This document shows positions 1 to 41,600 of a DNA stretch of 64,000 nucleotides, in pieces. The notes below the pieces were generated by a model. It ran no database searches, was not told the origin of the DNA, and was given only the letters and a program-made list of their open reading frames with translations. Numbering within the stretch: position 1 is the first letter of the stretch; each line of letters begins with the position of its first letter. A program made the position numbers and the translations under genes. The stretch comes from Octopus vulgaris (Eukaryota): positions 25,172,001 through 25,236,000 of the forward strand of contig OX597824.1 of NCBI GenBank assembly GCA_951406725.2. Reading direction: 5' to 3'.

Positions 1-1
1 T

Positions 2-574
2 GAAATATGCTACAGAGACAAAAGTGTTGATAATTTCTATGATATGTTTTATTCCCGATATCGATTACATAAAGCAGCTTACCAACACAAAACTGTTCTT
101 CTGTTTAATAAACTACTTGGCGAGGCCTTCAGATCTGCAGATAAACACCTGAAAATTTTCGAAAAGGTCGATGATACGAAGAAATTTACTTATTTTACAG
201 ATAGTATTTTGGAGGAGATATTAAATAATGAGAATAATGAAGGTCTCAAAGAAGCTCAGAGCAAATTGAAGAGTATGTTTTACCGGTGTTATAAATACAG
301 AGGTATAGACAAAGATAGAAGTTACCAAGGGGGAGACCAAGAGATAATATTCTGTGAAGCCAATTTGGATTATGGAGCTGGAGAGGAAAACCCATTAGAG
401 AAAATACCATTTTATAAAAAAGGTAAGAAGAAATCCTTCAAATATAATCAAGGGGAATTAGAAGACAGGCTTTTGCTGCCAAAAAAATTTCATTTGAAAA
501 TCCGTCATTGTTTTGAAAAGAAAATGAATAACAAAAATGAAGGAAGTAAGAAGAAAAAAGAAAGTGATTTTTAA
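2..574 (+). CDS. SAMHD1: SAMHD1-like HD-domain protein, C-terminal part (5' end outside window)
   Basis: Frame is open from position 2 (EICYRDKSVDNFYDMFYSRYRLHKAAYQHK...). Near-identical to the C-termini of the 413-aa ORFs at 17592 and 23082. HxxAYQHK and DYG.G..NP motifs are typical of SAMHD1. Confidence 0.85.
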   Translation, partial: EICYRDKSVDNFYDMFYSRYRLHKAAYQHKTVLLFNKLLGEAFRSADKHLKIFEKVDDTKKFTYFTDSILEEILNNENNEGLKEAQSKLKSMFYRCYKYRGIDKDRSYQGGDQEIIFCEANLDYGAGEENPLEKIPFYKKGKKKSFKYNQGELEDRLLLPKKFHLKIRHCFEKKMNNKNEGSKKKKESDF

Positions 575-8631: not shown

Positions 8632-8705
<74 letters not shown>

Positions 8706-8713
8706 TTTATTAT

Positions 8714-10036
8714 TCAGTAGTTTTATTTTTATAGCGTGCTTTCACTTCACTACCGAGCGCAGCTCTGTGTGCCTTGGGTATGTGCTGTGATTTGTTGTGA
8801 TGCTCTGATGGTTATTGTATGGAAAGTGTTCTGCGTAGGATGTGTGCAGTGCCTAGTAGTGCAATTTTCTGTATGTTATATGTGTTTGTAAGTCCTGGTG
8901 TTTTTGTTATGTATTTGTCTGAATATTTTTTTATCATGCCTAATGCACCTACTATGATAGGGATTGTTTCTGTTTTCAGATTCCACATTCTAGTTACCTC
9001 TATTTGCAGGTCTTTGTATTTTGAGAGTTTCTCCATTTCCTTTAGAGACACGTTGTCATCTGCCGGTATTGATACATCAATTAGAAAGCATTTTTTTCTT
9101 CATGATCTCTGACAACTATATCTGGTCTGTTGGCCTTAATTTCTCTATCTGTGTGTATCGGCATATCCCAGAGTATGGTTGCTTTCTCGTTTTCTGTGAC
9201 CTTTTCTGGTGTGTGCCTATACCATCTTTTTCTGTTGTTATTCCATAATGTTGACATAGCTTCCAATGTATGTAGGTTCCAACTCTGTCATGTCTGTGAA
9301 TATATTCCTTCTTAGCCAGGACTGGGCAGCTAGAGATAATATGATTTATTGTTTCTTGTCCATCTCCACATATTCTGCAGTTACTTGTAATATTTCTTTT
9401 CATTACATGTTTTTGGTAATTTCTGGTGGGGAGGCTTTGGTCTTGTGCTGCAATTAAAAATCCCTCTGTTTCTGCTTTGAGTCCTGAGCTTCTCAACCAT
9501 TGCTGGGATTTTTCTTTGTCTATTTCTTTTGCGTTTAGTTTAGTGCAGTATTTACAATGAAGGGGCTTTTCTTGCCATCGTTTTATCATGGTTCGTTGCT
9601 GTTCTATTTTTAGTTTGGATTTCATTTGTTTTATAGCTTTTGTTGTTTCTTCATCATCTTCTTCTTCTTCTTCTTCTTCGTGTTTATTAGGTGGTATGAT
9701 TTCTTGTTTGTATTTGTCAGCTTCCTTAAATACTGAGAACAGTTTTTTGTTTTGCTCGTGTTTTGCTGCTATCTGGATCAGTTTTCCTTCCTTCTGAAGT
9801 AGATATTTTTGCAGTCCTATGGTGGTTATTTTATAGTAGTTTTCCAGCTGTATAAGGCCTCTACCACCTTCTATAAGTTGTATATATAGTCTTTCTATGT
9901 CAGATTTTGGGTGATGCATCCTAGATTCTGTCAGTATTTTTCTTGTTTTCCTATCTATTTTGGACAGTTCATTTCGTGTCCAGTTAAGGATATTGTAGCT
10001 GTAACTTATAACTGGGACAGCTAAAGTGTTGATACC

Positions 10037-10037
<1 letters not shown>
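8714..10037 (-). mobile_element. 5'-truncated R4/Dong-like RLE non-LTR retrotransposon, copy A, in (TAA)n
   Basis: HPKSDIERLY..GGRGL, CCHC knuckle CRICGDGQETINHIISSC, RHD, RPDIVV..LIDVSIP endonuclease motifs. Frameshifted. Both ends abut TAA repeats. Confidence 0.9.
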
Positions 10038-10106
<69 letters not shown>

Positions 10107-10160
10107 ATTCAGTAGTTTTATTTTTATAGCGTGCTTTCACTTCACTACCGAGTGCAGCAC

Positions 10161-10233
<73 letters not shown>

Positions 10234-10239
<6 letters not shown>

Positions 10240-11558
10240 TAGTTTTATTTTTATAGTGTGCTTTCACTTCACTACCGAGCGCAGCTCTGTGTGCCTTAGG
10301 TATGTGCTGTGATTGGTTGTGATGCTCTGATGGTTATTGTATGGAAAGTGTTCTGCGTAGGATGTGTGCAGTGCCTAGTAGTGCAATTTTCTGTATGTTA
10401 TATGTGTTTGTAAGTCCTGGTGTTTTTGTTTGTATTTGTCTGAATTTTTTTTTATCATGCCTAATGCACCTACTATGATAGGAATTGTTTCTGTTTTTAG
10501 ATTCCACATTCTGGTTACTTCTATTTCCAGGTCTTTGTATTTTGAAAGTTTCTCCATTTCTTTTAGAGACATGTTGTCATCTGCCGGTATTGATACATCA
10601 ATTAGAAAGCATTTTTTTTCTTCATGATCTCTGACAACTATATCTGGTCTGTTGGCCTTAATTTCTCTATCTGTGTGTATCGGCATATCCCAGAGTATGG
10701 TTGCTTTCTCGTTTTCTGTGACATTTTCTGGTGTGTGCCTATACCATCTTTTTCTGTTGTTATTCCATAATGTTGACATAGCTTCCAATGTATGTAGGTT
10801 CCAACTCTGTCATGTCTGTGAATATATTCCTTCTTAGCCAGGACTGGGCAGCTAGAGATAATATGATTTATTGTTTCTTGTCCATCTCCACATATTCTGC
10901 AGTTACTTGTAATATTTCTTTTCATTACATGTTTTTGGTAATTTCTGGTGGGGAGGCTTTGGTCTTGTGCTGCAATTAAAAATCCCTCTGTTTCTGCTTT
11001 GAGTCCTGAGCTTCTCAACCATTGCTGGGATTTTTCTTTGTCTATTTCTTTTGCGTTTAGTTTAGTGCAGTATTTACAATGAAGGGGCTTTTCTTGCCAT
11101 CGTTTTATCATGGTTCGTTGCTGTTCTATTTTTAGTTTGGATTTCATTTGTTTTATAGCTTTTGTTGTTTCTTCATCATCTTCTTCTTCTTCTTCTTCTT
11201 CGTGTTTATTAGGTGGTATGATTTCTTGTTTGTATTTGTCAGCTTCCTTAAATACTGAGAACAGTTTTTTGTTTTGCTCGTGTTTTGCTGCTATCTGGAT
11301 CAGTTTTCCTTCCTTCTGAAGTAGATATTTTTGCAGTCCTATGGTGGTTATTTTATAGTAGTTTTCCATCTGTATAAGGCCTCTACCACCTTCTATAAGT
11401 TGTATATATAGTCTTTCTATGTCAGATTTTGGGTGATGCATCCTAGATTCTGTCAGTATTTTTCTTGTTTTCCTATCTATTTTGGACAGTTCATTTCGTG
11501 TCCAGTTAAGGATATTGTAGCTGTAACTTATAACTGGGACAGCTAAAGTGTTGATACC

Positions 11559-11559
<1 letters not shown>
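10234..11559 (-). mobile_element. R4/Dong-like LINE copy B
   Basis: Repeat of copy A at a 1522-bp offset (ORFs at 9116 and 10638). Confidence 0.9.
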
Positions 11560-11625
<66 letters not shown>

Positions 11626-11680
11626 ATTCAGTAGTTTTATTTTTTATAGCGTGCTTTCACTTCACTACCGAGTGCAGCAC

Positions 11681-11754
<74 letters not shown>

Positions 11755-11757
<3 letters not shown>

Positions 11758-13375
11758 CGTAGTTTTATTTTTATAGTGTGCTTTCACTTCACTACCGAGC
11801 GCAGCTCTGTGTGCCTTAGGTATGTGCTGTGATTGGTTGTGATGCTCTGATGGTTATTGTATGGAAAGTGTTCTGCGTAGGATGTGTGCAGTGCCTGGTA
11901 GTGCAATTTTCTGTATGTTATATGTGTTTGTAAGTCCTGGTGTTTTTGTTTGTATTTGTCTGAATTTTTTTTTATCATGCCTAATGCACCTACTATGATA
12001 GGAATTGTTTCTGTTTTTAGATTCCACATTCTGGTTACTTCTATTTCCAGGTCTTTGTATTTTGAAAGTTTCTCCATTTCTTTTAGAGACATGTTGTCAT
12101 CTGCCGGTATTGATACATCAATTAGAAAGCATTTTTTTCTTCATGATCTCTGACAACTATATCTGGTCTGTTGGCCTTAATTTCTCTATCTGTGTGTATC
12201 GGCATATCCCAGAGTATGGTTGCTTTCTCGTTTTCTGTGACATTTTCTGGTGTGTGCCTATACCATCTTTTTTCTGTTGTTATTCCATAATGTTGGCATA
12301 GCTTACAGTGTATGTAGGTTCCAACTCTGTCATGTCTGTGAATATATTCCTTCTTAGCCAGGACTGGGCAGCCAGAGATAATATGATTTATTGTTTCTTG
12401 TCCATCTCCACATATTCTGCAGTTATTTGTTATATTTCTTTTCATTACATGTTTTAGGTAATTTCTGGTGGGGAGGCTTTGGTCTTGTGCTGCAATTAAA
12501 AATCCCTCTGTCTCTGCTTTGAGTCCTGAGCTTCTCAACCATTGCTAGGATCTTTTTTGTCTATTTCTTTTGCGTTTAGTTTAGTTCAGTACTTACCATG
12601 AAGGGGCTTTTCTTGCCATCGTTTTATCATGGTTCGTTGCTGTTCTATTTTTAGTTTGGATTTCATTTGTTTTATAGCTTTTGTTGTTTCTTTATCTTCT
12701 TCTTCTTCTTCTTCTTCTTCTTCTTCTTCTTCTTCTTCTTCTTCTTCTTCTTCTTCTTCTTCTTCTTGGTGGTTATTTTATAGTAGTTTTCCATCTGTAT
12801 AAGGCCTCTACCACCTTCTATACGTTGTGTATATAGCCTTTCTATGTCAGATTTTGGGTGATGCATCCTAGATCCTGTCATTATTTTTCTTGTTTTCCTA
12901 TCTATTTTGGTCAGTTAATTTAGTGTCCAGTTAAGGATATTGTAGCTGTAACTTATAACTGGGACAGCTAAAGTGTTAATACATATTATCTTGTTTTTAG
13001 CATTGAGCTCTGTTTTTAGTATTGATCTAACTCGTCTATAATATTCTTTTTTTATTTTCTCTTTCATTTGTGTGTGTTGTGTCTTATCTAGTTCATGGAT
13101 TCCTAAGTATTTGTAAGTTTGGATTTGGTCTAATTCTTTCATTTCATTGGTTTTATCTAGTGTGATGTTGCTACTTTTAACTAGTTTTCCTCTTTTCAGG
13201 GTTACTTTGGCGCATTTTTCTAATCCAAATTTCATATCTATTTCTTTGGTAAATCTATGAACTATCTTTAATAGTGTTTCCAGTTGTTTGTCATTTGCAG
13301 CGTATAGTTTTAGGTCATCCATATATAAAAGGTGGCTGATCGTTTTGCCGTAACATTTATATCCGCATTCAGTTC

Positions 13376-14269: not shown

Positions 14270-15103
14270 ACATGTGCACGTGTATATGCAAATAAAGAGA
14301 GGAAGGGAGAGATGGGATCTTAATAACAACTCACGTGGAAATTCCACGAACGACTCATGAAATCATGATACAACACAATAAGGAAAGAATTAACGGCAAG
14401 AATGAAGCGATAGCGATGGTGGTGAAGGTTTCCCGCCCGACACGTCCGAAACCACCCGCATCAGGGGCAGTGATCTGGCTTCGGACGGTCGTTATGTCGC
14501 AAAAGATCATATACACGGTGTGCGCAAAAACAGACATAAATCGACGAAGGAAGAGTACGATACACTTATTGAATGTCATGAAAGAGCAATGTTGGAAAGA
14601 GGTCGCGGAGTAGGCTTAGGCAGCTCAACTCTTTTCCCGACTCGATCTACTTTGGATGTTCACATGCTCTCGGCGCTAGTGTTGGGACATAATTTCCCTC
14701 TGTTAGACCCCTGTTTGGTCACGTAATAAATAGAGAAAATGACCTGTCTCGCGCATCACTCCAGCAAGCTACACTGTCGTTCGTGCTAACCACAAAAATT
14801 ACGCACGACAACAGCGCCAGACACATTTCACTTCTGAAAAAAACCTTCACGGCATTTCTCACTTTTCAATACTGCAGGGAATCTACGATATCATTGATAG
14901 AGAATATACTCACTCGTTCACCTGAGATTATATTACAGTGAATTTTGATATGCGCACCTGCACTCGGGTATAAACCCTCACGCGCACGCACGCGCTTACT
15001 CATTTTCTTTGCTACCCAGTCACTGACAGCACGTTTTGGCACGTAAAGCGACACCGATATTTAGACTAACTTGAATAAATATCCGTCCCGTATACACTTC
15101 AAT
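14270..15103. mobile_element. Unclassified, relatively GC-rich inserted sequence that truncates the SAMHD1-like pseudogene
   Basis: SAMHD1 homology ends abruptly at 15104 and base composition shifts. Mirror copy with internal deletions at ~1336-1890. No recognisable protein motif. Confidence 0.4.
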
Positions 15104-15363
15104 GATATTTGCAGATCGGGATCTTGCTGCCTAAGATGGCGAATCATTTTGCCAGCAAGATAACATGTCCCCAAACAATGCTCAAATCTGTTATGTGAAG
15201 CTGATGGATAAACGTAATAAACCAAACCTAATTGTTTGATATTACGTAATCTCTGGAATTGAACTGTATTGATAATATCTACACAGAGTGATGGGAGCTT
15301 CATAGCTCCATGAATAGCGTCCTGAATGACCTGATCCCAATATGTACTGCGTGAGTAGGACAT
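15104..15363 (-). pseudogene. SAMHD1: 3'-truncated SAMHD1-like gene (first ~87 codons)
   Basis: [46 protein letters not shown], then runs into foreign sequence and stops before the HD motif. Confidence 0.9.
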
Positions 15364-16288: not shown

Positions 16289-17591
16289 TTATCCATATTT
16301 CTAGATAACATTTTTGCAGAAATACATTTTCGAGAGTGCGGATTACATTAGATTGAAAATTCAAGCAAGTTTGAAAGAATAAGTGAGAAAGCCGAAGTTA
16401 CAGCAATTAGTGGTAACGAGCCTGGGCTGGAGAGATAACGAATGAAAGAAAATTCATGTAAAGAAACACTAGATATTGTGTGTGTGTATGTGTGTGTGTG
16501 AAACAATTAAAAGTATAATATTAAAACAAAATATCTTTTTTATATCTCTTAAAAATCACTGGATGTATTAATCCCAGATTGCAGAATAGATTTGAAAAAC
16601 AAATACACTTACCTCTTGCAATTGTTGGCGCCGAAACTCTAACGGGGTAAGTAATGCGTTTCATCTTTATGTGTGGGGAGAGAGTGAGTGAGAGAGACAG
16701 AGAAACAGACAGAGAGAGAGACAGTGTATAATGATATGATTACGGATTTTTGTAGCAAATCACCCTTGATTTTTCTGTGTGTATGTTTGTGTTGCAAAAA
16801 GAAGTCATATGATTTAAAAGTAAGGTAATATATGTTAAATTTTAAATAAATCGAAGACTTTTCGTAACCAGAATATATTTCGTGGGAAAACAAATAAATA
16901 TAAAACAATGATTGATTTTGAAAAAAAATTTTATTCTTTCATTCATTCTAACCTTTGAATACTTGAAAACTTTCAATATATTTTTAAAATACAAAAATCC
17001 TAAACAAAAAATCACGGTGTTTGTCATATATTTCTAACGTGACTTAATGAGTAGGTATAATTTAAAAGCAAAGAATTATATATTTTTTTATAAATCTAAG
17101 ACATTTAGTTATAGGAAAATATTTCCTATTAAAAATACGTTTAATTTACAAAAAGATTATCGTTCGTTTAGAAATGTCCTTTGAATTTTTCAGTAGTTTC
17201 AATATATTTCTTTCCTTTTCTAGCTTTTACCAAATCTTAAGCAAAATTCCTTTACTTCCTCGTATACATTTCTAACGTTGCATTATAAAATCATATATTT
17301 CAAATTAAAACAAAAAAAGTGAAAATTTAAAACCTTTGAAAAGATTTGGTTAAAAGAAAATATTTTTTAGTGAAAACAAAAATGTTAATTTCTATATGGT
17401 TATTTCTAACATTGGAATAGCTCAGTAGTTTGGATATAGTTTTATTATTTTTATCTTTCAGAATGTCTTAGTTCTTATTTCACACATCCGTTTCTTCTTT
17501 GTTTCGTCATATTCGATCTGATTGTTTTGTTATTGCTTTTTCTCAAGATTCTTTCTTATCTGTTATTTTTTTCATTATTTATTATTCATTT

Positions 17592-18833
17592 TTAAAAATC
17601 ACTTTCTTTTTTCTTCTTACTTCCTTCATTTTTGTTATTCACTTTCTTTTCAAAACAATGACGGATTTTCAAATGAAATGTATTTGGCAGCAAAAGCCTG
17701 TCTTCTAATTCTTCTTGATTATATTTGAAGGATTTCTTCTCACCTTTTTTATAAAATGGTATTTTCTCTAATGGGTTTTCCTCTCCAGCTCCATAATCCA
17801 AATTGGCTTCACAGAATATTTTCTCTTGGTCTCCGTCTCGGTTATTTCCATCTTTGTCTGTACCTCTGTATTTATAACACCGGTAAAACATACTCTCCAA
17901 TTTGCTCTGAGCTTCTTTGAGACCTTCATTATTCTCATTCTTTAATATCTCCTCCAAAATACTATCTGTAAAATAAGTAAATTTCTTCATATCGTCGACC
18001 TTTTCGAAAATTTTCATGTGTTTATCTGCGGATCTGAAGGCCTCGCCAAGTAGTTTATTAAACAGAAGAACAGTTTTGTGTTGGTAAGCTGCTTTATGTA
18101 ATCGATATCGGGAATAAAACATATCATAGAAATTATCAACAGTTTTGTCTCTGTAGCATATTTCACCATCTATTACTTTGGACATTTTCATCATTCTTCC
18201 GTGATCAAAGGATTTTCCAATGCCAAGAAAATGGGAATCCCTTGCCAGGTAATCCCATTGATTAACGTCGATTTTATAGCCTGTATTGTTGACAATTTGG
18301 TAAAAGAATTTTGGCTTCTGAGAATTTCTTGTTTCACCAATTATAATATCTTTTATGAAATCAATCTCATCAGACTTCAGTTCTTCGTTAATATGTGGGT
18401 TTTTTTCAAGAAGATGATCCAGCATTTTGCACGTTGCATTTTTATTTTCCCACTTTTCACCTCCATTTTCCTCTCGATGTTGGTTGATAATTTTTTGAAA
18501 GGTGTAAGAGAAGGGACCATGTCCTAAATTATGACACAAAGCAGCAATTTCAACACAAAGCATATCTCGATCAGATATTGGCAGATCGGGATCTTGCTGC
18601 TTAAGATGGCGAATCATTTTGCCAGCAAGATGACATGTCCCCAAACAATGCTCAAATCTGTTATGTGAAGCTGATGGATAAACGTAATAAACCAAACCTA
18701 ATTGTTTGATATTACGCAATCTCTGGAATTGTGTTGTATTCATAATATCTACACAGAGTGATGGGAGCTGCATAGCTCCATGAATAGCGTCCTGAAAAAC
18801 CTGATCCCAATATGTACTGCGTGAATAGGACAT
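17592..18833 (-). CDS. SAMHD1: Intronless SAMHD1-like HD-domain protein, 413 aa, no SAM domain, catalytic residues substituted
   Basis: [51 protein letters not shown] and HKAAYQHK align with the SAMHD1 HD domain. Uninterrupted ORF. Confidence 0.92.
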   Translation of the reverse strand: MSYSRSTYWDQVFQDAIHGAMQLPSLCVDIMNTTQFQRLRNIKQLGLVYYVYPSASHNRFEHCLGTCHLAGKMIRHLKQQDPDLPISDRDMLCVEIAALCHNLGHGPFSYTFQKIINQHREENGGEKWENKNATCKMLDHLLEKNPHINEELKSDEIDFIKDIIIGETRNSQKPKFFYQIVNNTGYKIDVNQWDYLARDSHFLGIGKSFDHGRMMKMSKVIDGEICYRDKTVDNFYDMFYSRYRLHKAAYQHKTVLLFNKLLGEAFRSADKHMKIFEKVDDMKKFTYFTDSILEEILKNENNEGLKEAQSKLESMFYRCYKYRGTDKDGNNRDGDQEKIFCEANLDYGAGEENPLEKIPFYKKGEKKSFKYNQEELEDRLLLPNTFHLKIRHCFEKKVNNKNEGSKKKKESDF

Positions 18834-19110
18834 TATGAAATTATCAGAAAAGTATCTAACTTACTTTTTAGTTGCTTTTTATATTGCAATTTCCTTGCTG
18901 CTGGCCTCGTTGTCGTTATGTGAGTTGGTTTTGAAATATGGAGAAAAAATAACAATTATACAGACGTGTTCAGTACGATATTTCTAACATTTGATTCGAA
19001 AAGATCTCAGTTCCATTGGCATTTAGACGTCTGATGTCAGAAATAATACAAGCGATCCAAAAGTGATCCGTGGTCGATAGCAACACAAGAAAATAAACAG
19101 TGTTGCTATC
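18834..19110 (-). promoter_or_regulatory. Conserved upstream block (putative promoter/5' UTR) with TATA-like ATATAAAA ~50 bp before ATG
   Basis: The same ~200-280 bp lies upstream of all four ATG-bearing copies (15364.., 18834.., 24324.., ..29020). AAAAGTAAGTTAGATA is invariant. Confidence 0.45.
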
Positions 19111-19389
19111 TCAAAAGTTGGCTCAATTATATACCCAACGCCCTAACACCAGCACCACATCTCTTTCCAAGAAAAGTACTGCTGCTGCTGCTGTTTCCAC
19201 TACTACTACTACCGCCACCACCACCACCACCACCACCACCTCCACCACCACCACCACCTCCACCACCACCACCACCACCACCACCACCACCACCACCACC
19301 ACCACTTGCTGCTCCTTTGAAACAACAGTAAGACTTGCGTGCTGTTTTTGAAATTGAAAGTGAAATTTGTACGCTGCTGCTGCTAGTAC

Positions 19390-20040
19390 TACTACTAATA
19401 TTTGCGCAGTTTATATCCCAAGTCAGAAACTGAAAATGCTATCAATAGCAATTCACGATCAATCTCTACTCATAAACAGTTAAGAAAGCTATCTGCACAA
19501 TGCGCTGAATCAAATTGTAGAGTATGTCATAATAACCTACAGTATTTAAGCTACCGACAACATTGTGGTTGTCCACTCTTACGACGTAATACCCGAGTAC
19601 AAAACTGAACATGACTAAATAGGTTCGTACCTACATTAAAAAAAAAAACTGTCGTCTTCATGACATTCTCCTGCCTAAAAACTGTTAAGAACACCACCCG
19701 AAACCAGTTACAGAACGTAACAGAGTTACTGTTGTGTTGGACTGATACTAGCTCACCTGACATTATTATCAAACATCACCGATAAAATGCTTGCCATCTA
19801 GTATTACCAGCTGATCAGTCAAAAAATTCGAGAAGTTTGCTAAATACAGTGACCTATAGAATTAACAGAATGTGGAAACCGAATAGATATTCTAACGGTA
19901 GTAGTAAGACACTAGGTATTGCAGAAAAATTAGGGTCTTTAGTCTGCATCTATAAAATATCTGAAAAATTAAATATACACAATGTCCTAAATATGGCACT
20001 AACCTCAAAACCTCAACAGCTCATCTCTTGAGAAAATTAC
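19390..20040 (+). mobile_element. Old, degenerate R4/Dong-like LINE fragment
   Basis: LYPKSETENAI..SNCRVCHNN..HCGCPLL resembles the LKAETE..CRIC..H..GCPVL region. Homologous inverted copy at ~28050-28430. Confidence 0.55.
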
Positions 20041-20159
20041 AATCGTTATAACATAGCTACTAGTCTTAGATCTCAGATAGAGAACAGGCTAATAGCTAAA
20101 AGCCTCGATATCAGGTTCAAATTATAGAATAAAATAATAAGGGTTTCAACTTTTGACAC

Positions 20160-20565
20160 ACCGCCAGCAATTAATTTGGAGAAGTGTAAGGTAATTACAT
20201 CCACTGGTGTGCTCGGCTGGTACTTTATCGATCCCGAAAAGATGAACTGCAAATTAACCTCGGTGTAATTTGAACTCATAACGTAAAATCACACGAAACG
20301 CCGCTAAGCATTTTGCACAGCGCGTTAACTATTCTCCAGGTTTGCCGGCTTAATGATATTCCGTTCTGCTATAGGCTCAAGGCCTAGAATTTCTTGGATA
20401 GTCGGTTACATCGATCCAGTACTAGACTGGTATTTAATTTATGAACCCCGAAATGATAAAGGGCAAAGATAACCACTGGGGAATTTGAACTGAAAACGTA
20501 AAGATGAATGAAATGCCGCTTAGCCTTTTACCCGGCGTGCTAACGATGATGCCAGCCACCGTCTT
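20160..20565 (-). mobile_element. Two degenerate SINE family 3 copies
   Basis: CTGGTACTTTATCGATCCCGAAAAGATGAA...ATTTGAACTC motif repeated twice. Confidence 0.6.
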
Positions 20566-20658
20566 AAGAATAATAATAATGATGATGATGATGACGATGA
20601 TAATAATAATAATAATAGCAATAACAATATTAATGATATTAAGGATAATAATAATAAC

Positions 20659-20701
<43 letters not shown>

Positions 20702-21269
20702 GTTATAGTAACAATAATAATAATAATAATTATTATTATTTATATATAATAAATATTATTATAAAAAAAAATTTTTTTTTAAATTAAAAAAACCCTTTTT
20801 TTTAGGCATTCATTAGTACAACCCCCCCCCAATATATGGCACACTAGGCATAACAACAACATGAACTTCCAACCCTGTTGTCTCTTGAGGTCTCTGGGTG
20901 AGACTTGGAGCCAACTTGTACAAATATAAAGCAAAAGTCAAACATAGAATAATAATAATAATAATAATAATAATTAATAATAATAATAATAATGGATTGA
21001 AATTTTTCCACTAGGTTAGCCATTTTTGGAGAGGGAATGTGTCGATTACAAGAAACCTCGTTTTCAACTGTTAGTTAATTGATCGCCCCCACACCTCGTA
21101 TCAACCCGGAATCATTGGAAATTTTAAATTTCTTTCGTTGAATAAATTACAGTGACCTTCAAAGATGCCACAATATATTTTTTTTTTGTCCGGAAAATGT
21201 GGGAGAAAGGTGGGGTGGGGTGGAGCACTCGCCCTCGCACCATCTTCAAATACTTTCGCTGTTTCTTTA

Positions 21270-21691
21270 CTTACTCTTTACTCTTTTACTTGTTTCAGTC
21301 ATTTGACTGCGACCATGCTGGAGCACCGCCTTTAGTCGAGCAACTCGACCTCGGGACTTATTCTTTGTAAGCCCAGTACTTTTTCTATCGGTCTCTTTTG
21401 CCGAACCGCTAAGTAACGGGGACGTAAACACACCAGCATCGTTTGTCAAGCAATGCTAGGGGGACAAACACAGACACACAAACACACACACACACACACT
21501 TATATATATATATATATATACATATATACGACAGGCTTCTTTCAGTTTCCGTCTACCAAATCCACTCACAAGGCATAGGTCGGCCCGGGGCTATAGCAGA
21601 AGACACTTGCCCAAGATGCCACGCAGTGGGACTGAACCCGCAACCATGTGGTTGGTTATCAAGCTACTTACCACACAGCCACTCCTGCGCC
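21270..21691 (-). mobile_element. SINE family 1 copy
   Basis: Reverse complement of 3931-4346. Confidence 0.85.
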
Positions 21692-22084
21692 TTACCCATA
21701 TTTTTATATAACATTTTGCAGAAATATATTTTTCAGAGTGCGGATTACATTAGACTGAAAATTCAAAGAAGTTTGAAAAGAATAAGTGGAAAAGCTGAAG
21801 TAATAGAAATTACTAGTAACGTAGCTTGGGCTGGAGAGATAAGGAATGACAGAAAATTCATGAAAAGAAACGCTAGTGTTTGTATTTGTGTGTGTGTGTG
21901 TATGTGTGTGTGAAACAATTAAAAGAATAATATTAAACTAAATATCCGTTTAATACCTCTTAAAATTTCTGGGCATATCAAACCCAGATTGCAAAATAGA
22001 TTTGAAAAACAAATACACTTTCCCCTTGAAACTTTTTGGCGCCGAAACTTGAACCGAGTAAGTAATGCGTTTCATTTTTCTGTG

Positions 22085-22120
<36 letters not shown>

Positions 22121-23081
22121 CAGATACAGAGACAGAGAGAGGGAGAAAAGGCGCCTTTTCTATGTATGTGTGTTTGTGTATGTTAATCTATGTGAATCTG
22201 TGAGAGTTTATGTGTATGTGTATGACAACCAAATCTGAAACAAAATTTCTCTACTTCTCAAATATGCATTTTCACATTAAACAATGAAGTTATTTGTTTT
22301 AAAAGTAAGGATATATATGTTAAAAATTTTTTAAAATCGAAGATGTTTGCTAAACAGAAGATATTTCTCGAGAAAGCAAATAAATAAAAATAAAACAATG
22401 ATTGATTTAGAAAAAAATTATTATTCTTTTATTCATTCTAACCTTTGAAAACTTGAAAAGTTTCAATATATTTTTAGAATATTAAACTTTTACAAAAATC
22501 CAAAACAAAAAATCACGGTATTTGTCATATATTTCTAACGTGACCCAATGAGTAGGTATAATTTAAAAGCAAAGAATTATATGTTTTTTTATAAATCTAA
22601 GACATTTAGTTATAGGAAAATATCTTATATTAAAAATACGTTTAATTTACAAAAAGATTATCGTTCGTTTAGAAATGTCCTTTGAATTTTTCAGTAGTTT
22701 CAATATATTTCTTTCCTTTTCTAGCTTTTACCAAATCTTGAACAAAATTCCTTTACTTCCTCATATACATTTCTAACGTTGCGTTATAAAATTACATGTT
22801 TCAAATTAAAACAAAAATTGGAAAATTGAAAAGATTTGGTTAAAAGAAAATATTTTCTAGTGAAAACAAAAATGTTAATTTCTATATGGTTATTTCTGAC
22901 CTTGGAACCTGTCAATAGTTTCGATATACTTGTATTATTTTTATCTTTCAGAATGTCTTAGTTCTTATTTCACACATCCGTTTCTTCTTTGTTTCGTCAT
23001 ATTCGATCTGATTGTTTTGTTATTGCTTTTTCTCAAGATTCTTTCTTATCTGTTATTTTTTTCATTATTTATTGTTCGTTT

Positions 23082-24323
23082 TTAAAAATCACTTTCTTTT
23101 TTCTTCTTACTTCCTTCATTTTTGTTATTCACTTTCTTTTCAAAACAATGACGGATTTTCAAATGAAATTTTTTTGGCAGCAAAAGCCTGTCTTCTAATC
23201 CCTTTTGATTATACTTGAAGGATTTCTTCTCACCTTTTTTATAAAATGGTATTTTCTCCAATGGGTTTTCCTCTCCAGCTCCATAATCCAAATTGGCTTC
23301 ACAGAATATTTTCTCTTGGTCTCCGTCTCGGTTATTTCCATCTTTGTCTGTACCTCTGTATTTATAACACCGGTAAAACATACTCTCCAATTTGCTCTGA
23401 GCTTCTTTGAGACCTTCATTATTCTCATTCTTTAATATCTCCTCCAAAATACTATCTGTAAAATAAGTAAATTTCTTCATATCATCGACCTTTTCGAAAA
23501 TTTTCAGGTGTTTATCTGCGGATCTGAAGGCCTCGCCAAGTAGTTTATTAAACAAGAGAACAGTTTTGTGTTGGTAAGCTGCTTTATGTAATCGATATAG
23601 GGAATAAAACATATCATAGAAATTAACAAGAGTTTTGTCTCTGTAGCATATTTCACCATCAATTACTTTGGACGTTTTCAATATCCTTCCGTGATCAAAG
23701 GATTTTCCAATGCCAAGAAAATGGGAATCCCTTGCCAGGTAATCCCATTGATTAACGTCGATTTTATAGCCTGTATTGTTGACAATTTGGTAAAAGAATT
23801 TTGGCTTCTGAGAATTTCTTGTTTCACCAATTATAATATCTTTTATGAAATCAATCTCATCAGACTTAAGTTCTTCGTTAATATGTGGGTTTTTTTCAAG
23901 AAGATGATCCAGCATTTTGCACGTTGCATTTTTATTTTCCCACTTTTCACCTCCATTTTCCTCTCGATGTTGGTTGATAATTTTTTGAAAGGCGTAAGAG
24001 AAGGGACCATGTCCTAAATTATGACACAAAGCAGCAATTTCAACACAAAGCATATCTCGATCAGATATTGGCAGATCGGGATCTTGCTGCTTAAGATGGC
24101 GGATCATTTTGCCAGCAAGATGACATGTCCCTAAACAATGCTCAAATCTGTTATGTGAAGCTGATGGATAAACGTAATAAACCAAACCTAATTGTTTGAT
24201 ATTACGCAATCTCTGGAATTGAGTTGTATTCATAATATCTACACAGAGTGATGGGAGCGTCATAGATCCATGAATAGCGTCCTGAAAAACCTGATCCCAA
24301 TATGTACTGCGTGAGTAGGACAT
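23082..24323 (-). CDS. SAMHD1: Intronless SAMHD1-like HD-domain protein, 413 aa, catalytic residues substituted
   Basis: Very close paralogue of 17592-18833 with the same HN, SY, WENK and VNQW substitutions plus an R-to-L change in YSRY. Intact ORF. Confidence 0.92.
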   Translation of the reverse strand: MSYSRSTYWDQVFQDAIHGSMTLPSLCVDIMNTTQFQRLRNIKQLGLVYYVYPSASHNRFEHCLGTCHLAGKMIRHLKQQDPDLPISDRDMLCVEIAALCHNLGHGPFSYAFQKIINQHREENGGEKWENKNATCKMLDHLLEKNPHINEELKSDEIDFIKDIIIGETRNSQKPKFFYQIVNNTGYKIDVNQWDYLARDSHFLGIGKSFDHGRILKTSKVIDGEICYRDKTLVNFYDMFYSLYRLHKAAYQHKTVLLFNKLLGEAFRSADKHLKIFEKVDDMKKFTYFTDSILEEILKNENNEGLKEAQSKLESMFYRCYKYRGTDKDGNNRDGDQEKIFCEANLDYGAGEENPLEKIPFYKKGEKKSFKYNQKGLEDRLLLPKKFHLKIRHCFEKKVNNKNEGSKKKKESDF

Positions 24324-24861: not shown

Positions 24862-24932
24862 TTATTGCTGCTGATACTATTCTATAGTAAACCTTGAGTG
24901 CGGATGTGAAATTCAAAGTGAAAGTTATATGA

Positions 24933-25134: not shown

Positions 25135-25745
25135 CGAGGAATTCAATTTGTGGATAACCTATGGTATTCCTATCTGCTGGTCTATCACATACCCTATCTA
25201 GATATGATATGGATCTCTCGACACAATTTCCCCATGTCCACACTGGAGTATTCGGGAAATCGAATCTGAACCTGTCCGCCAGCTTGAAACGACTGCGCAG
25301 GTTTGCGAAGCTTGCGCACCCTACATTCCCATCCACTATCCCCACCCAATCCAAATGTGCCTCCAATATAGCATTCCAATCGCCCACTAACACTAAAGAG
25401 CGAGTCGTTCTTACAAAGGTCTGAAGAACGCCGGCTGCCCGACTCCAGTCGGTGAGTACACTGCGACCAGTCTAAAAGGACTGCCTTCGTTATCGTTCAT
25501 ATCCCGGACCAGCGTCTTATCTTCAGGATCCAGAAAGATCGACCGTATCTCGAGATCCTGGCCTTTTCTGAACGACACTGCCCCCTACCATTTCCAGTCG
25601 ACTAAGAGATGCGAAAATCTCGAAGTCATCGAAAATGGGATCCAAGGCCTATGTGCCCGCGATCCTGGTCTCACTGACGGCTATTACATCCAGGTTTAAC
25701 CACCTGTATGTTGCACGAGCGTCCTTGCTTCTACGACAACACCAG
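25135..25745 (-). mobile_element. L1/Tx1-type LINE AP-endonuclease fragment
   Basis: LVGDWNAIL...WTWGN...SYLDRV motifs of the APE domain. Locally higher GC. Confidence 0.75.
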
Positions 25746-25819
25746 GCCACGTACATTTATACAACCTAATTTTAAACCCGACATACTGGCCAGGAAGCAA
25801 GGAAAGGAAACACAATTTC

Positions 25820-26880
25820 GGCAACATAATTTCACAATAAACTCGCACGCAGTCGCAGTAGTTCGTATCCTAAAGTGGACAGAAGAGGAGCTAAAGGAGA
25901 TGGACAGGAAGTCAAGAAAGCCTCTAACGTTGCATAGAGCCCATCATCTACGTGCAGTTACTGATCGCCTATACATGAAGAGAGCAAATGGAGGAAGGGG
26001 AGTGATAAGAGTGGAAGATTGCGTGCGTATTGAACTCGGGAACTTAAAGAAATACCTAGCCCAAAGTAAGGAAACCTTGCTAGTGACAGTTAGGAATGAG
26101 AGAGTATTGAGAGCAGAAAAAAAAATGAAAACAGAGGAAGAAGTACAGAAAGGACATGAAGAAGAATTACGTAAGAAGGAAATACACAATCAATTCTATG
26201 TAGCCACAACAGAAGTTGCTGGAAAAATAGGTGAGATTGGCTGATGAAAGGAACCCTAAAAAAAAAAAAGAGACCGAAAACACTATACTGGCAGTGCAAG
26301 ACCAAGCGTAGGTCACGAACTGGAGGGTCAACTTTAGGAATGAACAAGTGTTTCCGCTGTGTCACATCTGCAATAGAGTGGATGAAACCATTGCCCATAT
26401 TACGAACGAATGCCCTGCACTTGCCCCAAAACACTACAATTTGTAGCAAAACAACTAGGTAGCGAAAGTGCTACATTAAAAACTGTGCGAAAGGCAGAGG
26501 TTAGAAAGAGGCAAGGCGTTGTATGAGAACAAAGCACAGAGCGTGGCGGAGTCGGAGACTAGCAAAATCCTCTGGGATTTCCCAGTCCAAACAGATCAGG
26601 TGCTAGAGCATAACAGACCGGACCTAGTTGTGGTGGACAAGATGTACCACGTGTGCTATATAGTTGATGTTGGATGCCGCTTTGACCCACGAATAGTCAA
26701 AAAGCAAGATGAAAAGATAGCCAGATACAACCCTCTTAAGTAAGAAATAGCCCGGCTATGGAAAATGAAGATGAAGATAGTGCTAGTTATTGTTGGGTCC
26801 TTGGGGAACAGTATCAGAAGGCTTCAATAGGAATATAAGGGAAATTAGAACAGAGTGCCCAGTAGAACTTATAGAACGTG
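25820..26880 (+). mobile_element. Degenerate R4/NeSL-type LINE, C-terminal half
   Basis: WTEEELKEMDRKSRK..DRLYMKRANGGRG; KILWDFPVQTDQVLEHNRPDLVVVDK. Confidence 0.8.
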
Positions 26881-26989
26881 AAAGATTAGTTCCTGATGAT
26901 GATGTAAGTCGATAGTTCTAGGGTAAGAGATGGAGTAAGCAAGAACAACATAATACTCCATCTGAATGGGCTCTGCAGCCGAAAGCAAA

Positions 26990-27940
26990 CAACTTATCCT
27001 CAGCAAGAGGCTATCCACTTCACAGAAGAGTAAAAAGATAAGCCCAGGGCTTGATGTACTGGGATTTCGATGAATAAAAGATCAGTAGGTTCCATAAAGT
27101 GATCGCAGTGCAATTTAATGCATTGATCGATGGAGAAAAAATCTCGGGTTAGTTGACAAAAGGATGGATTGTGTTGTGCCTGGATGCATCAAATATAAAT
27201 GCTGCTGACAACCACAAGCCAATTTCCTTGCCTGCCATTAATGTGAAAGTTACTGTCAGGAGGAATTTGAGAAGAACTGTGCACATTTCTTGATGAGAAC
27301 AATATGTTACCAACGGAACAAAAAGGGTTGTAGAAGGAGTTGTAGAGGTACCAAAGACCAATCATTGATAGACAAAATGGTAATGCAAGATTGTAAAGGA
27401 AGGAGAACGAATTTGGGAATGGCCTGGATTGACGATAGCAAAGCTTATGACATGTTTCCACATTCATGGATTATGCTTGAATCTGTTTGGAACTGCGAGG
27501 AATGTAACATATTTTCTGAAGAGAAGTATGGTTGGGTGGAAAACTGAGTCGACAGCCTACGGAAAAAGCTTGGGTAGTCTGGGAATCAGAAGAGGAATTT
27601 TTTCAGGGAGATAGCTTATCTCTATTGCTTTTTGTTTTCTGCATGATTCCTCTGGCCCTGGTACTTAGGAAAATGAACCTTGGATATCAGCTAAATGGAA
27701 AATCTCAAACAATCAATCACTTCCTCTTCATGGACGATTTGAAGGTGTATAAAATGGATGAGGCAAAAGTCAGTTCCGTAGTAAACACAGTTCACTGTTT
27801 TAGCGCTGACATTAGAATGGAATTCAGATTCTAGAAGTGTACTATAAAGTACCTAGAAAGAAGCAAGGTACTATTCCTAGCAGGGACAGCATTACCTAAA
27901 AGAGAAATGATAAAACAAATTGAAATAGAAGGCTGAAAAT
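26990..27940 (+). mobile_element. Degenerate R4/NeSL-type LINE RT core
   Basis: [59 protein letters not shown] across frameshifts. Confidence 0.8.
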
Positions 27941-28592: not shown

Positions 28593-29020
28593 CGTACAAG
28601 TTTCATTTTTAGTTTCACAGTCACTGATTTTTACTGCTGTTTAGTATTAACAGTGGTGGTGATAGTGGTGGTGATGGTGGCAGTGGTGGTGTTGTTAGTG
28701 ACGGTTGTTGGGTTTACTTTTAAATAAACTTTTGACATAGCAACATTGTTTATTCCATTGTCTTGCTTCCAACCACGGAGACACATTTGGATCCGTTACA
28801 TTATTTGAGGCATTCCGACATCCAAATGCCAATATGACTGAGATCTTTCAAATCAGATATTAGAAATATCGTACTGAACATATCTGATTGATTTATATTT
28901 CTACTCCAGTTTTCAAAACCAACACACACTGCAACATCAACAGGACGACCACCAGCAAAACAAAAGCAACATAAACGGCAACCCAAAAAGTAAGTTAGAT
29001 ATTTTCCTGATAATTTAATA

Positions 29021-30245
29021 ATGGCCTACTCACGTGTTACAAAATGGGACCAGGTTTTTTCAGGACGCTATTCATGGATCTATGGAGCTTCCGCCACTCT
29101 GTGTTGATATTATGAATACAACACAATTTCAGAGATTACGTAATATAAAACAATTAAGTTTGGTTAATTACGTTTATCCATCGGCTTCACATAATAGATT
29201 TGAGCATTGTCTAGGAACGTGTTACCTAGCTGGAAAAATGGTTCGCCATCTTAAACAGCAAAATCCCGATCTGGAAATATCTGATCGAGATATGCTTTGT
29301 GTTGAAATTGCTGGTTTATGTCATGATTTAGGACATGCGCCTTTTTCTCATGTCTTTCAAGAAATTATCAACGAGTATCGCAAGGAAAATGGAGGTGAAG
29401 AGTGGGAACATGAAGATGCATCATGTGAAATGTTAGAGCATCTTTTTAAAGAGAACGAAGATATTAAAGTTGAGCGTAATGAAATTGATTTCATAAAAGA
29501 TCTCATTACTGGTAAATCAGAAAAATCTCAGAGACCAAAATTTCTTTACCAAATCATTAACAATAAATCCTATAACATCGACGTTGATAAATGGGATTAC
29601 CTAGCTAGAGATTCCCATTTTCTTGGTTTTGGAAAATCCTTTGATCACGAAAGAATGATGAAAATGTCCAAAGTAATAGGTGATCAAATATGCTACAGAG
29701 ACAAATGTCTTGATAATTTCTATGATATGTTTTATGCACGATATCGACAACATAAAACTGCTTGCAAACACAAAACTGCTCTTCTTTTTAATAAACTACT
29801 TGATAAAGTTTTCAACTCTGCCAATGAACAACTACAAATTTTCGAAAAGGTCGACGATATGAAGGAGTTTACTTATTTTACAGATAGTATTTTGGAGGAG
29901 ATATTAAAGAATGAGGATAATGAAAGTCTCAAAGAGGCCCGGAAGAAATTGAAGGATATAATCTATCGGTCTTATAAATACAAAGGCACAAATGAAGATG
30001 AAAATGACCAGGACGGAAAACATGAGAAAATATTCTGTAAAGCTGTTTTTGATTTTGGAGCTGGAAGCGAAAACCCATTAGAGAAGATACCATTTTATAG
30101 AAAAGATGAAACCGAATCATTCACGTATAGTCAAGAAGAATTAGACGAGAGGCTTTTGCTGCCAAGCAAATTTCAAATGGAAATCTGTCACTGTTTTGAA
30201 AAAAAGGTGAAAGTCCAAAAAGAAGGAAGCCTTAAGACCAATTAA
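29021..30245 (+). CDS. SAMHD1: SAMHD1-like HD-domain dNTPase with canonical HD...D motifs; +1 frameshift (T6 vs T5) at 29055-29060, so either a pseudogene or a sequencing error
   Basis: LCHDLGHAPFSH, WEHEDAS and IDVDKWDYLARD are canonical. The paralogue-equivalent ATG at 29021 (MAYSRVTKWDQVF) is out of frame with the long ORF by one extra T. Confidence 0.85.
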
Positions 30246-38510: not shown

Positions 38511-38635
38511 AATCATACCTGTATGTATATAGGTGTGTATATATGTATGTATGTATGTATGTATGCGTGTATGCATGTATGTATGTATGTATGCGTGTAT
38601 GCATGTATGTATAGATATATGTATATATATATAAT

Positions 38636-41600
38636 TATAAAATTAATTAAGGGTAGAAATTGATATTTATCAATTAAGACCAGTGGTCTAGCATATTAAA
38701 AGAGAATCCGAAGATTAAAATATTTATATATACCAATTAAGGACTGAACACGAAAAGTGGACAGTCAACATGCTAGATATAGACGTCAAATCGTCATTCA
38801 CCACAAAAGATTATGTTCTCAGATCAAACTCAACACAAAACCATAGCAATAAACAAGTGAAAAATATACGAAATAAAATAATTACCCATGTACTAACTTA
38901 GTTTCAGCTGTTATTTTCCGCAAGGAAAACTGCAGCCATCATCAGCATGGTCCGTTATAAATGTAATTTGCTGGACTAGATGCAAACACGATACCGAAAT
39001 ATCGCGTGCATGGAGTTCAGCCTATTACATTTGAATATATCTTTCAAATGCCTTTACTTTGGCGCGTTGAAACCCGAGAAAACTAGCCTGCAGCTAATAA
39101 TTAGCAGCAGTTAATTTATCGGTTAGAGAACATATTTATTTATATAAAATTAATTAAGGGTAGAAATTGATATTTATCAATTAAGACCAGTGGTCTAGCA
39201 TATTAAAAAAGAATCCGAAGATTAAAATATTTATATATACCAATTAAGGACTGAACACGAAAAGTGGACAGTCAACATGCTAGATATAGACGTCAAATCG
39301 TCATTCACCACAAAAGATTATGTTCTCAGATCAAACTCAACACAAAACCATAGCAATAAACAAGTGAAAAATATACGAAATAAAATAATTACCCATGTAC
39401 TAACTTAGTTTCAGCTGTTATTTTCCGCAAGGAAAACTGCAGCCATCATCAGCATGGTCCGTTATAAATGTAATTTGCTGGACTAGATGCAAACACGATA
39501 CCGAAATATCGCGTGCATGGAGTTCAGCCTATTACATTTGAATATATCTTTCAAATGCCTTTACTTTGGCGCGTTGAAACCCGAGAAAACTAGCCTGCAG
39601 CTAATAATTAGCAGCAGTTAATTTATCGGTTAGAGAACATATTTATTTATATAAAATTAATTAAGGGTAGAAATTGATATTTATCAATTAAGACCAGTGG
39701 TCTAGCATATTAAAAAAGAATCCGAAGATTAAAATATTTATATATACCAATTAAGGACTGAACACGAAAAGTGGACAGTCAACATGCTAGATATAGACGT
39801 CAAATCGTCATTCACCACAAAAGATTATGTTCTCAGATCAAACTCAACACAAAACCATAGCAATAAACAAGTGAAAAATATACGAAATAAAATAATTACC
39901 CATGTACTAACTTAGTTTCAGCTGTTATTTTCCGCAAGGAAAACTGCAGCCATCATCAGCATGGTCCGTTATAAATGTAATTTGCTGGACTAGATGCAAA
40001 CACGATACCGAAATATCGCGTGCATGGAGTTCAGCCTATTACATTTGAATATATCTTTCAAATGCCTTTACTTTGGCGCGTTGAAACCCGAGAAAACTAG
40101 CCTGCAGCTAATAATTAGCAGCAGTTAATTTATCGGTTAGAGAACATATTTATTTATATAAAATTAATTAAGGGTAGAAATTGATATTTATCAATTAAGA
40201 CCAGTGGTCTAGCATATTAAAAAAGAATCCGAAGATTAAAATATTTATATATACCAATTAAGGACTGAACACGAAAAGTGGACAGTCAACATGCTAGATA
40301 TAGACGTCAAATCGTCATTCACCACAAAAGATTATGTTCTCAGATCAAACTCAACACAAAACCATAGCAATAAACAAGTGAAAAATATACGAAATAAAAT
40401 AATTACCCATGTACTAACTTAGTTTCAGCTGTTATTTTCCGCAAGGAAAACTGCAGCCATCATCAGCATGGTCCGTTATAAATGTAATTTGCTGGACTAG
40501 ATGCAAACACGATACCGAAATATCGCGTGCATGGAGTTCAGCCTATTACATTTGAATATATCTTTCAAATGCCTTTACTTTGGCGCGTTGAAACCCGAGA
40601 AAACTAGCCTGCAGCTAATAATTAGCAGCAGTTAATTTATCGGTTAGAGAACATATTTATTTATATAAAATTAATTAAGGGTAGAAATTGATATTTATCA
40701 ATTAAGACCAGTGGTCTAGCATATTAAAAAAGAATCCGAAGATTAAAATATTTATATATACCAATTAAGGACTGAACACGAAAAGTGGACAGTCAACATG
40801 CTAGATATAGACGTCAAATCGTCATTCACCACAAAAGATTATGTTCTCAGATCAAACTCAACACAAAACCATAGCAATAAACAAGTGAAAAATATACGAA
40901 ATAAAATAATTACCCATGTACTAACTTAGTTTCAGCTGTTATTTTCCGCAAGGAAAACTGCAGCCATCATCAGCATGGTCCGTTATAAATGTAATTTGCT
41001 GGACTAGATGCAAACACGATACCGAAATATCGCGTGCATGGAGTTCAGCCTATTACATTTGAATATATCTTTCAAATGCCTTTACTTTGGCGCGTTGAAA
41101 CCCGAGAAAACTAGCCTGCAGCTAATAATTAGCAGCAGTTAATTTATCGGTTAGAGAACATATTTATTTATATAAAATTAATTAAGGGTAGAAATTGATA
41201 TTTATCAATTAAGACCAGTGGTCTAGCATATTAAAAAAGAATCCGAAGATTAAAATATTTATATATACCAATTAAGGACTGAACACGAAAAGTGGACAGT
41301 CAACATGCTAGATATAGACGTCAAATCGTCATTCACCACAAAAGATTATGTTCTCAGATCAAACTCAACACAAAACCATAGCAATAAACAAGTGAAAAAT
41401 ATACGAAATAAAATAATTACCCATGTACTAACTTAGTTTCAGCTGTTATTTTCCGCAAGGAAAACTGCAGCCATCATCAGCATGGTCCGTTATAAATGTA
41501 ATTTGCTGGACTAGATGCAAACACGATACCGAAATATCGCGTGCATGGAGTTCAGCCTATTACATTTGAATATATCTTTCAAATGCCTTTACTTTGGCGC

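Follow-up and report, generated by a model that had tools for sequence, protein, structure and literature searches.

Octopus SAMHD1-like genes with open frames and replaced catalytic residues: candidate pseudoenzymes under selection

A stretch of 64,000 nucleotides of Octopus vulgaris DNA (contig OX597824.1, positions 25,172,001 to 25,236,000; hereafter the window) contains two open reading frames (ORFs), A and B, which encode SAMHD1-like proteins with replaced residues in the catalytic centre. Together with three further copies, they make up a group that we call HN-type. It is highly probable, in our estimate, that the HN proteins are selected and catalytically dead: they would have the SAMHD1 fold and be under purifying selection, with the deoxynucleoside triphosphate triphosphohydrolase (dNTPase) activity predicted to be absent. 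A whole mechanism, in which they join mixed oligomers as non-catalytic subunits and belong to an antiviral programme linked to interferon regulatory factors (IRFs), is a nearly balanced call and is put forward tentatively. The genes that carry the argument are the following (residues are numbered as in mammalian SAMHD1):

17592..18833, minus strand: ORF A (L005), HN-type SAMHD1-like gene, 413 amino acids (aa), intronless, HD domain only
18530-18528, 18506-18504 and 18446-18444: codons of ORF A with D207N, H215Y and H233N
18443-18441, 18263-18261 and 18260-18258: codons of ORF A with E234K, D311N and K312Q
23082..24323, minus strand: ORF B (L006), HN-type, 413 aa, intronless, with the six changes of ORF A and, in this assembly, R366L
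29021..30245, plus strand: metal-intact "CK" paralogue (L001) with Y374C and Q375K, candidate partner

Catalytic residues and selection

ORFs A and B are both open and 96.6% identical. They read CHNLGHGPFSY, WENKN and IDVNQWDY, while the copy at 29021 reads CHDLGHAPFSH, WEHED and IDVDKWDY. The first-pass annotation had described these differences as HD>HN, FSH>FSY, WEHED>WENKN and DVDKW>DVNQW, and direct reading of the sequence bears this out. It had also placed them at D207, H215, H233/E234 and D311/K312; alignment of ORF A to the SAMHD1 chains of the PDB and to Tupaia SAMHD1 gave the same positions (D207N, H215Y, H233N, E234K, D311N, K312Q), with H167 and H206 kept relative to the Tupaia protein. 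In human SAMHD1, iron is held by H167, H206, D207 and D311 and magnesium by D207 and H233, and H215 is the acid (PMC7311409). The iron ligand positions 167, 206, 207 and 311 of ORFs A and B are H, H, N and N, the magnesium ligand position 233 is N, and the general acid position 215 is Y. The RLR, KQL, NRFEH and YQHK motifs are seen in both ORFs, as had been stated earlier.

Among 101 non-octopod homologues (drawn from the 120 listed among 1125 matches), D207, H215, H233 and D311 are each conserved in 100, K312 in 101 and E234 in 99. Across the outgroup and 13 metal-intact paralogues, 68 columns do not vary; among them, the HN proteins have changes in 9 of the 16 active-site columns, 0 of the 9 allosteric ones and 1 of the 43 others (p=0.008 and 8e-6). 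Active-site columns thus account for nine of the ten invariant columns altered in any HN protein (hypergeometric P=2e-6), and the previously proposed concentration of the changes in the active site holds. Four changes are common to all five HN proteins, and three of the four affect metal or acid residues (P=0.0015). Every HN copy has lost at least three of D207, H215, H233 and D311, and ORFs A and B have lost all four; N207, Y215 and N233 are fixed in four of the five proteins. The fifth, L009, carries D207N, H215Y, H233K, R164I and H210Y and retains D311 and K312. The octopus changes are single-base steps, one codon excepted.

ORF A keeps Q149, L150, R164, H210, Y315, D319, R366, H370, Y374, Q375 and all oligonucleotide-binding residues, and the oligonucleotide and allosteric residues Q142, R145, R451 and H376 are kept in every HN copy. 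Contacts with the substrate erode copy by copy (R164I and H210Y in L009, R366L in B, K312Q in A and B). Compared with the human dNTPase (HD domain ~113-560), the HN ORFs are alike in fold (TM 0.86, ~37% identity) and retain Q142, R145, V156, F165, D330, R333, R352, K354, N358, H376, K377, R451, K455 and K523. They differ from it in having no SAM domain and no introns, in their length of 413 aa, in the six active-site changes and, at the allosteric sites, in D137N, K116Q and N119Q, which also occur in metal-intact octopod paralogues, and R372A. D137N (residue 32 of ORF A, allosteric site 1) is found in every octopod cluster copy and not in L025, a gene outside the cluster; human SAMHD1 D137N is activated by XTP instead of GTP (PMC7311409).

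The phmmer search with ORF A against the SAMHD1 chains of the PDB gave an E value of 4e-75 over residues 11-326. The Pfam HD domain (PF01966) scored above its cut-off from residue 11 onwards, and no Pfam match to a SAM domain was obtained in ORF A. The structure model of ORF A has a predicted local distance difference test score (pLDDT) of 92 and a predicted template modelling score of 0.90, and Foldseek aligned it to SAMHD1 with a TM score of ~0.86 and E about 1e-30; according to the model, the SAMHD1 fold is intact. By their sequences, the HN proteins are members of the SAMHD1-like family that lack the residues characteristic of an active dNTPase.

Studies of human mutants are instructive at the same positions. 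H215A has no activity and still forms the tetramer, H233A is ~300-fold less active, and H206R/D207N has neither activity nor a metal in its site (PMC7311409); D311A keeps tetramers and oligonucleotide binding at the allosteric sites via Q142, R145, R451 and H376 (PMC7854603). From the human mutants at these positions, hydrolysis is predicted to be lost in the HN proteins, and we infer from the same mutants that selection maintains their allosteric and oligomer surfaces. The engineered proteins keep tetramers or ligand binding and lose hydrolysis (PMC7311409, PMC7854603), whereas the HN losses are natural, stacked in one protein, tens of millions of years old and located in a separate gene.

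The ratio of nonsynonymous to synonymous rates (dN/dS, omega) was estimated with the GY94 branch model over codons 13-321 of 15 copies from genome G000, whose SAMHD1-like proteins are named Octopus vulgaris by the source databases. The first-pass annotation regarded these genes as selected and not as young pseudogenes, for which dN/dS near 1 together with a lack of expression had been set in advance as the mark. The omega of the HN crown is 0.43 (p=1.3e-5 against 1) and that of the stem is 0.33; the background of metal-intact paralogues has 0.44, about the same as the crown (p=0.91). This value and an O. bimaculoides orthologue with the core changes uphold the earlier view. As the family is mosaic, the analysis was rerun in three segments with 12 copies, giving an HN omega of 0.39, 0.52 and 0.24 (p=0.013, 0.037 and 0.0009 against 1). 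Pairwise omega among the youngest copies is 0.31-0.43 for A and B and 0.54-0.98, not significant, for A and L009. Neutral simulation over the length of the HN crown produced 10.6 stops on average, and none of the 5000 runs was stop-free. The coding distance between A and B is 0.023, against 0.068 and 0.111 for their flanks. Constraint between species was tested on the protein level: the O. bimaculoides protein XP_052834274 differs from ORF A at 2 of 74 invariant columns outside the active site and at 32 of 217 variable columns (p=0.003).

A different pattern is observed in the metal-intact cluster L013-L019 (G000:C11:25402418-25476403 and C15:48336617), where omega reaches 4.3 (p=1e-6). Its members have a long Thr/Gly/Ile-rich insertion close to the C-terminus, and L018 and L019 differ by 86 nonsynonymous and 7 synonymous substitutions. 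Judging by sequence, this likely reflects an evolutionary arms race, or else gene conversion.

Gene family, neighbourhood and expression

The search of G000 gave 44 matches, and among the best 30 of them, which were examined, 20 have a near-full frame: five HN copies, three CK copies, 11 other metal-intact cluster copies and L025, a more canonical gene on C20. Many metal-intact copies therefore persist in the genome. The HN set comprises L005-L009; L007 and L008 encode an identical protein and may be one locus. Databases label HN proteins as ordinary SAMHD1-like enzymes.

Phylogeny was analyzed with quick trees; three near-copy carp rows were left out of the family tree. The cluster groups with two metal-intact Argonauta proteins as the sister of L025, and the HN copies form a single clade (bootstrap 100). 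The O. bimaculoides protein XP_052834274 has N207, Y215, N233 and N311, that is, it is an HN orthologue with the four core changes, and it branches within the HN clade, grouping with A, B and L009 and apart from L007. Because it nests inside the clade, the catalytic loss is older than the split of O. vulgaris and O. bimaculoides, dated to ~34 million years (bioRxiv 2023.05.16.540928). Other cephalopods were also searched for shorter HN fragments; one of 21 candidates matched, a metal-type O. bimaculoides fragment. Two O. sinensis proteins, P0002 and P0384, from the contig of P0016, are chimeras with the front of one paralogue type and the back of another; on sequence comparison, they reflect recombination in the cluster or mis-assembly.

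The copy at 29021 keeps H167, H206, D207, H215, H233 and D311, and had served as the canonical reference in the first-pass annotation. This use of it has to be given up: to judge by its residues, it is not a canonical enzyme and is unfit as a canonical comparator, because it carries Y374C and Q375K, and the human Y374F, Y374I and Y374A mutants are dead (PMC5207538). In addition, the run 29055-29060 has one T too many, which takes the ATG at 29021 out of frame. The O. sinensis orthologue (P0386) has an unbroken frame; on this comparison, the extra T is an assembly slip or a recent break. Y374C and Q375K also occur in the O. bimaculoides orthologue of this copy. All three CK paralogues (L001, L002, L003) keep every metal ligand, and O. 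bimaculoides and O. sinensis share their Y374C and Q375K. Y374 is replaced in 26 of the 332 metal-intact domains collected from all stored matches, and a changed substrate of the CK paralogues is possible, to go by these residues.

Each of the three CK copies lies head-to-head with an HN copy (L003/L007, L002/L008 and 29021/B). The model of an HN and CK dimer lends weak support to such a pairing, scoring 0.60 against 0.00 for the best control, with contacts agreeing in at least 94% between runs and a partner pLDDT of at least 87. In the benchmark of this score, 51 of 78 solved pairs and 2 of 108 mismatched pairs reached the mark, and passing scores of 0.60 or below were obtained for only 5 of the 78 solved pairs and for each of the 4 mismatches, among 180, that passed at all. 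Unless the pairing is likely in advance, a score of this size is wrong more often than it is right. Solved SAMHD1 dimers exist, and the modelled score may reflect mere likeness to them.

Sequences resembling the interferon-stimulated response element (ISRE) lie upstream of the genes of the window:

19350..19365, minus strand: putative ISRE/IRF-like element TTTCACTTTCAATTTC, ~520 nt upstream of ORF A
24908..24923, minus strand: putative ISRE-like element with one mismatch, upstream of ORF B
28601..28616, plus strand: putative ISRE-like element with one mismatch, upstream of the 29021 copy

We take the 16-mer TTTCACTTTCAATTTC to be an ISRE/IRF-like motif, and the triple-core element TTTCACTTTCARTTTC presumably fits the ISRE consensus. 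Exact copies of TTTCACTTTCARTTTC number 110 in 2.8 Gb, against 26 for the reversed control, and 8 of the 110 are upstream of HN or CK copies against ~0.01 expected, an enrichment to be read with the facts that these upstream sites are homologous to one another and that the pattern was picked post hoc. Oyster IRFs activate ISRE reporters (PMC5557890). A single bidirectional promoter shared by ORF B and the 29021 copy was considered and rejected, given the gap of 4.7 kb, the retroelement-like fragments in it and the two separate ISRE-like sites. Further clusters of the 16-mer were observed at G000:C8:8880030-9143805 and C19:50820828-50885897; by their sequence, they are candidate antiviral gene loci.

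The stretch is present in 20 of the 24 listed sequencing runs, none of which is on record as RNA. The region 16800-19200 was compared with three runs from three studies that a tool guessed to be RNA and with one DNA run. A single contig in each of the three runs (762, 550 and 470 nt) covers the altered codons; the contig differences shown match copy B, with at most 1, 2 and 1 further differences per contig; among the variant rows listed, 71 short of the full set, A-type alleles are absent. Contig totals are 19-61 million letters in these runs and 1859 million in the DNA run. The small totals would fit transcriptomes, and ORF B is likely expressed. A transcript 3' end at 16914, where one RNA-guessed contig stops 16 nt past AATAAA (16935-16930), was rejected, the DNA run being also uncovered below 16962; the 5' ends differ between runs, and the transcript-end reading was not used. 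SAMHD1-like proteins are named in a paper on a mucus proteome (PMC11431876).

Two further HN-type sequences are found in the window:

1..574, plus strand: 3' part of a third HN-type ORF (L009, 413 aa), the start of which precedes the window
15103..15363, minus strand: 5' fragment of a broken HN-type copy, 87 codons, 92% identity to ORF A

Retroelement-like fragments, which we assume to be of the long interspersed nuclear element type, are located at 8639-12720, inside the SAMHD1 cluster, and at 25708-27940, between ORF B and the 29021 copy; they include a 1522-bp tandem triplication. A tandem array of 33 copies of a 507-bp unit with ~99.9% identity occupies 38623-55457. No Rfam match was found within the 64-kb window, the array included.

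Predicted inactive SAMHD1-like domains in other animals

The collection of 367 domains was taken from all stored matches, and a domain was scored as dead at two or more changes among six chemistry residues. By this measure, 25 are dead and 332 have no change in these residues. Dead domains occur in Octopus, Cypriniformes, gobies and pulmonate snails, with a few single cases elsewhere. H167, D319 and Y374 are kept in all 25 and R164 in 24. The replacements vary by lineage and copy (N, D, R, H, K or Y at 311; N or K at 233), and the pairing of N207 with Y215 recurs in cyprinid dead domains. In a tree of 34 of the 367 domains, well-supported branches force at least four separate origins (octopus, cyprinids, gobies and snails), and a single clade of octopus and cyprinid dead domains is rejected (p-AU 1e-67).

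The dead domains of Cypriniformes (XP_051560078, XP_067260337), gobies and pulmonate snails (XP_059178802, CAL1543483) resemble the HN proteins in the loss at 206/207, 215 and 311 and in mostly keeping H167, the allosteric arginines and H376; those of the carp family have N207 and often Y215. They differ in their independent origin, and in fish models an intact domain often precedes the dead one and a beta/gamma-crystallin domain comes after it. Carp-family (P0124; Myxocyprinus XP_051560078) and goby (P0270) gene models join an intact domain to a dead one, with the metal-intact domain preceding. Y374 is replaced by L in the intact domains of the carp family and by C in the octopus partner. In P0124, P0126, P0137, P0271 and P0280, from several carp-family fishes (Cypriniformes), a beta/gamma-crystallin domain comes directly behind the SAMHD1-like domain scored as dead in the order of the model.

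Competing explanations and significance

The mechanism we favour is the following. HN subunits would bind nucleotides or short nucleic acids at the allosteric sites and would form joint oligomers with metal-intact copies nearby, the Y374C copy being one example. Expression of HN and CK copies would be induced by IRFs as part of an antiviral programme, and the effect of the HN subunit on its partner would be activation, damping or a changed substrate. Among the roles suggested by the first-pass annotation, those of a ligand binder and a regulator of hetero-oligomers fit the retained allosteric residues; that of a decoy fits poorly, since the HN omega equals the background.

Several points weigh against this mechanism. 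ORFs A and L009, two of the five HN ORFs, have no head-to-head partner, and the three existing pairs may share one ancestral event. Human Y374 mutants being dead (PMC5207538), the CK partner may itself be no dNTPase, and, given D137N at allosteric site 1, octopod cluster copies may respond differently to GTP. The copy that appears in the reads is ORF B, which has only a one-mismatch site of the post hoc pattern, the runs are RNA by the guess of the tool alone and have no silent control stretch, and the gene is intronless. The family is mosaic (L007 and L001 are at a distance of 0.05 in codons 283-322, besides the O. sinensis chimeras P0002 and P0384), and the branch omegas therefore carry conversion noise; the fragment at 15103-15363 is a broken HN-type copy. 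As for other animals, the intact goby domain retains Y374, several of the dead domains in cyprinids and snails form gene models of their own, and the fish fusions may come from wrongly joined models.

The HN protein could also act without a partner, its own dimers or tetramers binding nucleic acids or holding dNTPs uncut in the manner of the H206R/D207N substrate trap. D207N is a laboratory trap substitution (PMC7311409), the dead human D311A binds oligonucleotides (PMC7854603), ORF A retains the substrate-pocket set from Q149 to Q375 and all oligonucleotide-binding residues, and the unpaired ORFs A and L009 would be expected. However, the erosion of substrate contacts in single copies speaks against a conserved pocket for holding dNTPs, and the repeated adjacency to metal-intact copies is left unexplained, which makes this alternative rather unlikely.

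It is improbable that the HN proteins are remodelled enzymes that keep one metal (H167, H206, N207, N311) and catalyze a different reaction, with Y215 replacing the histidine acid. The retention of H167, R164, D319 and Y374 in nearly all dead domains, the fixation of N207, Y215 and N233 in four of five HN proteins and the recurrence of N207 with Y215 in cyprinids agree with it; however, the residues at 311 and 233 differ by lineage and copy, L009 additionally lost R164 and H210, and the octopus changes are single-base steps save one codon.

A decoy role, in which HN proteins would divert a viral antagonist from the active SAMHD1 copies, would suit the upstream ISRE-like elements and an expanded, fast-evolving family with an omega of 4.3 in one metal-intact cluster (p=1e-6). 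This is quite improbable in view of the HN omega, which equals the background (p=0.91), and of the allosteric ligand residues, needless for a pure decoy; moreover, no cephalopod viral antagonist is known to us, although no search for one was made.

Young or relaxed pseudogenes, with frames open by chance or gene conversion, would be at home in a birth-and-death cluster containing fragments, frameshifted copies and mosaic sequences, and the non-significant omega of about 0.5-1.0 between A and L009 would agree. This explanation is very improbable and largely refuted by an omega below 1 in every segment, the absence of stop-free neutral runs, the O. bimaculoides orthologue and the lower coding than flanking distance between A and B.

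Coleoid RNA recoding is extensive, and the changes at codons 207 and 311 (AAT) and 234 (AAA) are G-to-A at codon position 1, so that adenosine-to-inosine editing of the first base would restore D, D and E; such a rescue is scarcely credible, as H215 (TAC) and H233 (AAT) are beyond restoration and no sign of editing was seen in the single contigs that cover these codons in three runs, where the unlisted differences number at most 1, 2 and 1, although contigs drop minor variants and low-level editing could escape.

Returning to the mechanism of mixed oligomers, dead partners of active paralogues are familiar from cFLIP with caspase-8 and iRhom with rhomboids. The HN copies would likewise be a selected dead paralogue beside an active relative; this is an analogy alone. 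A bolder generalization, which we regard as doubtful, is that two-component SAMHD1 machines arose repeatedly in animals. One subunit would be dead and provide the allosteric and nucleic-acid surfaces; the other would be metal-intact and have a reshaped substrate pocket (Y374C in octopus, Y374L in carps). IRFs would induce the two together as an antiviral effector with a substrate other than plain dNTPs.

The literature search, with most subscription papers beyond reach, returned no study on the octopus SAMHD1 expansion or on natural SAMHD1 pseudoenzymes, and a preprint on zebrafish interferon-stimulated genes has SAMHD1 in its reference list only. It is still open whether depletion of dNTPs is the sole means by which SAMHD1 restricts viruses and retroelements (PMC12090746, PMC7854603). 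Natural genes without the chemistry and with selected allosteric surfaces, of at least four origins, would offer a ready experiment on a non-catalytic role of SAMHD1, and the HN locus is a concrete candidate effector locus for cephalopod antiviral immunity.

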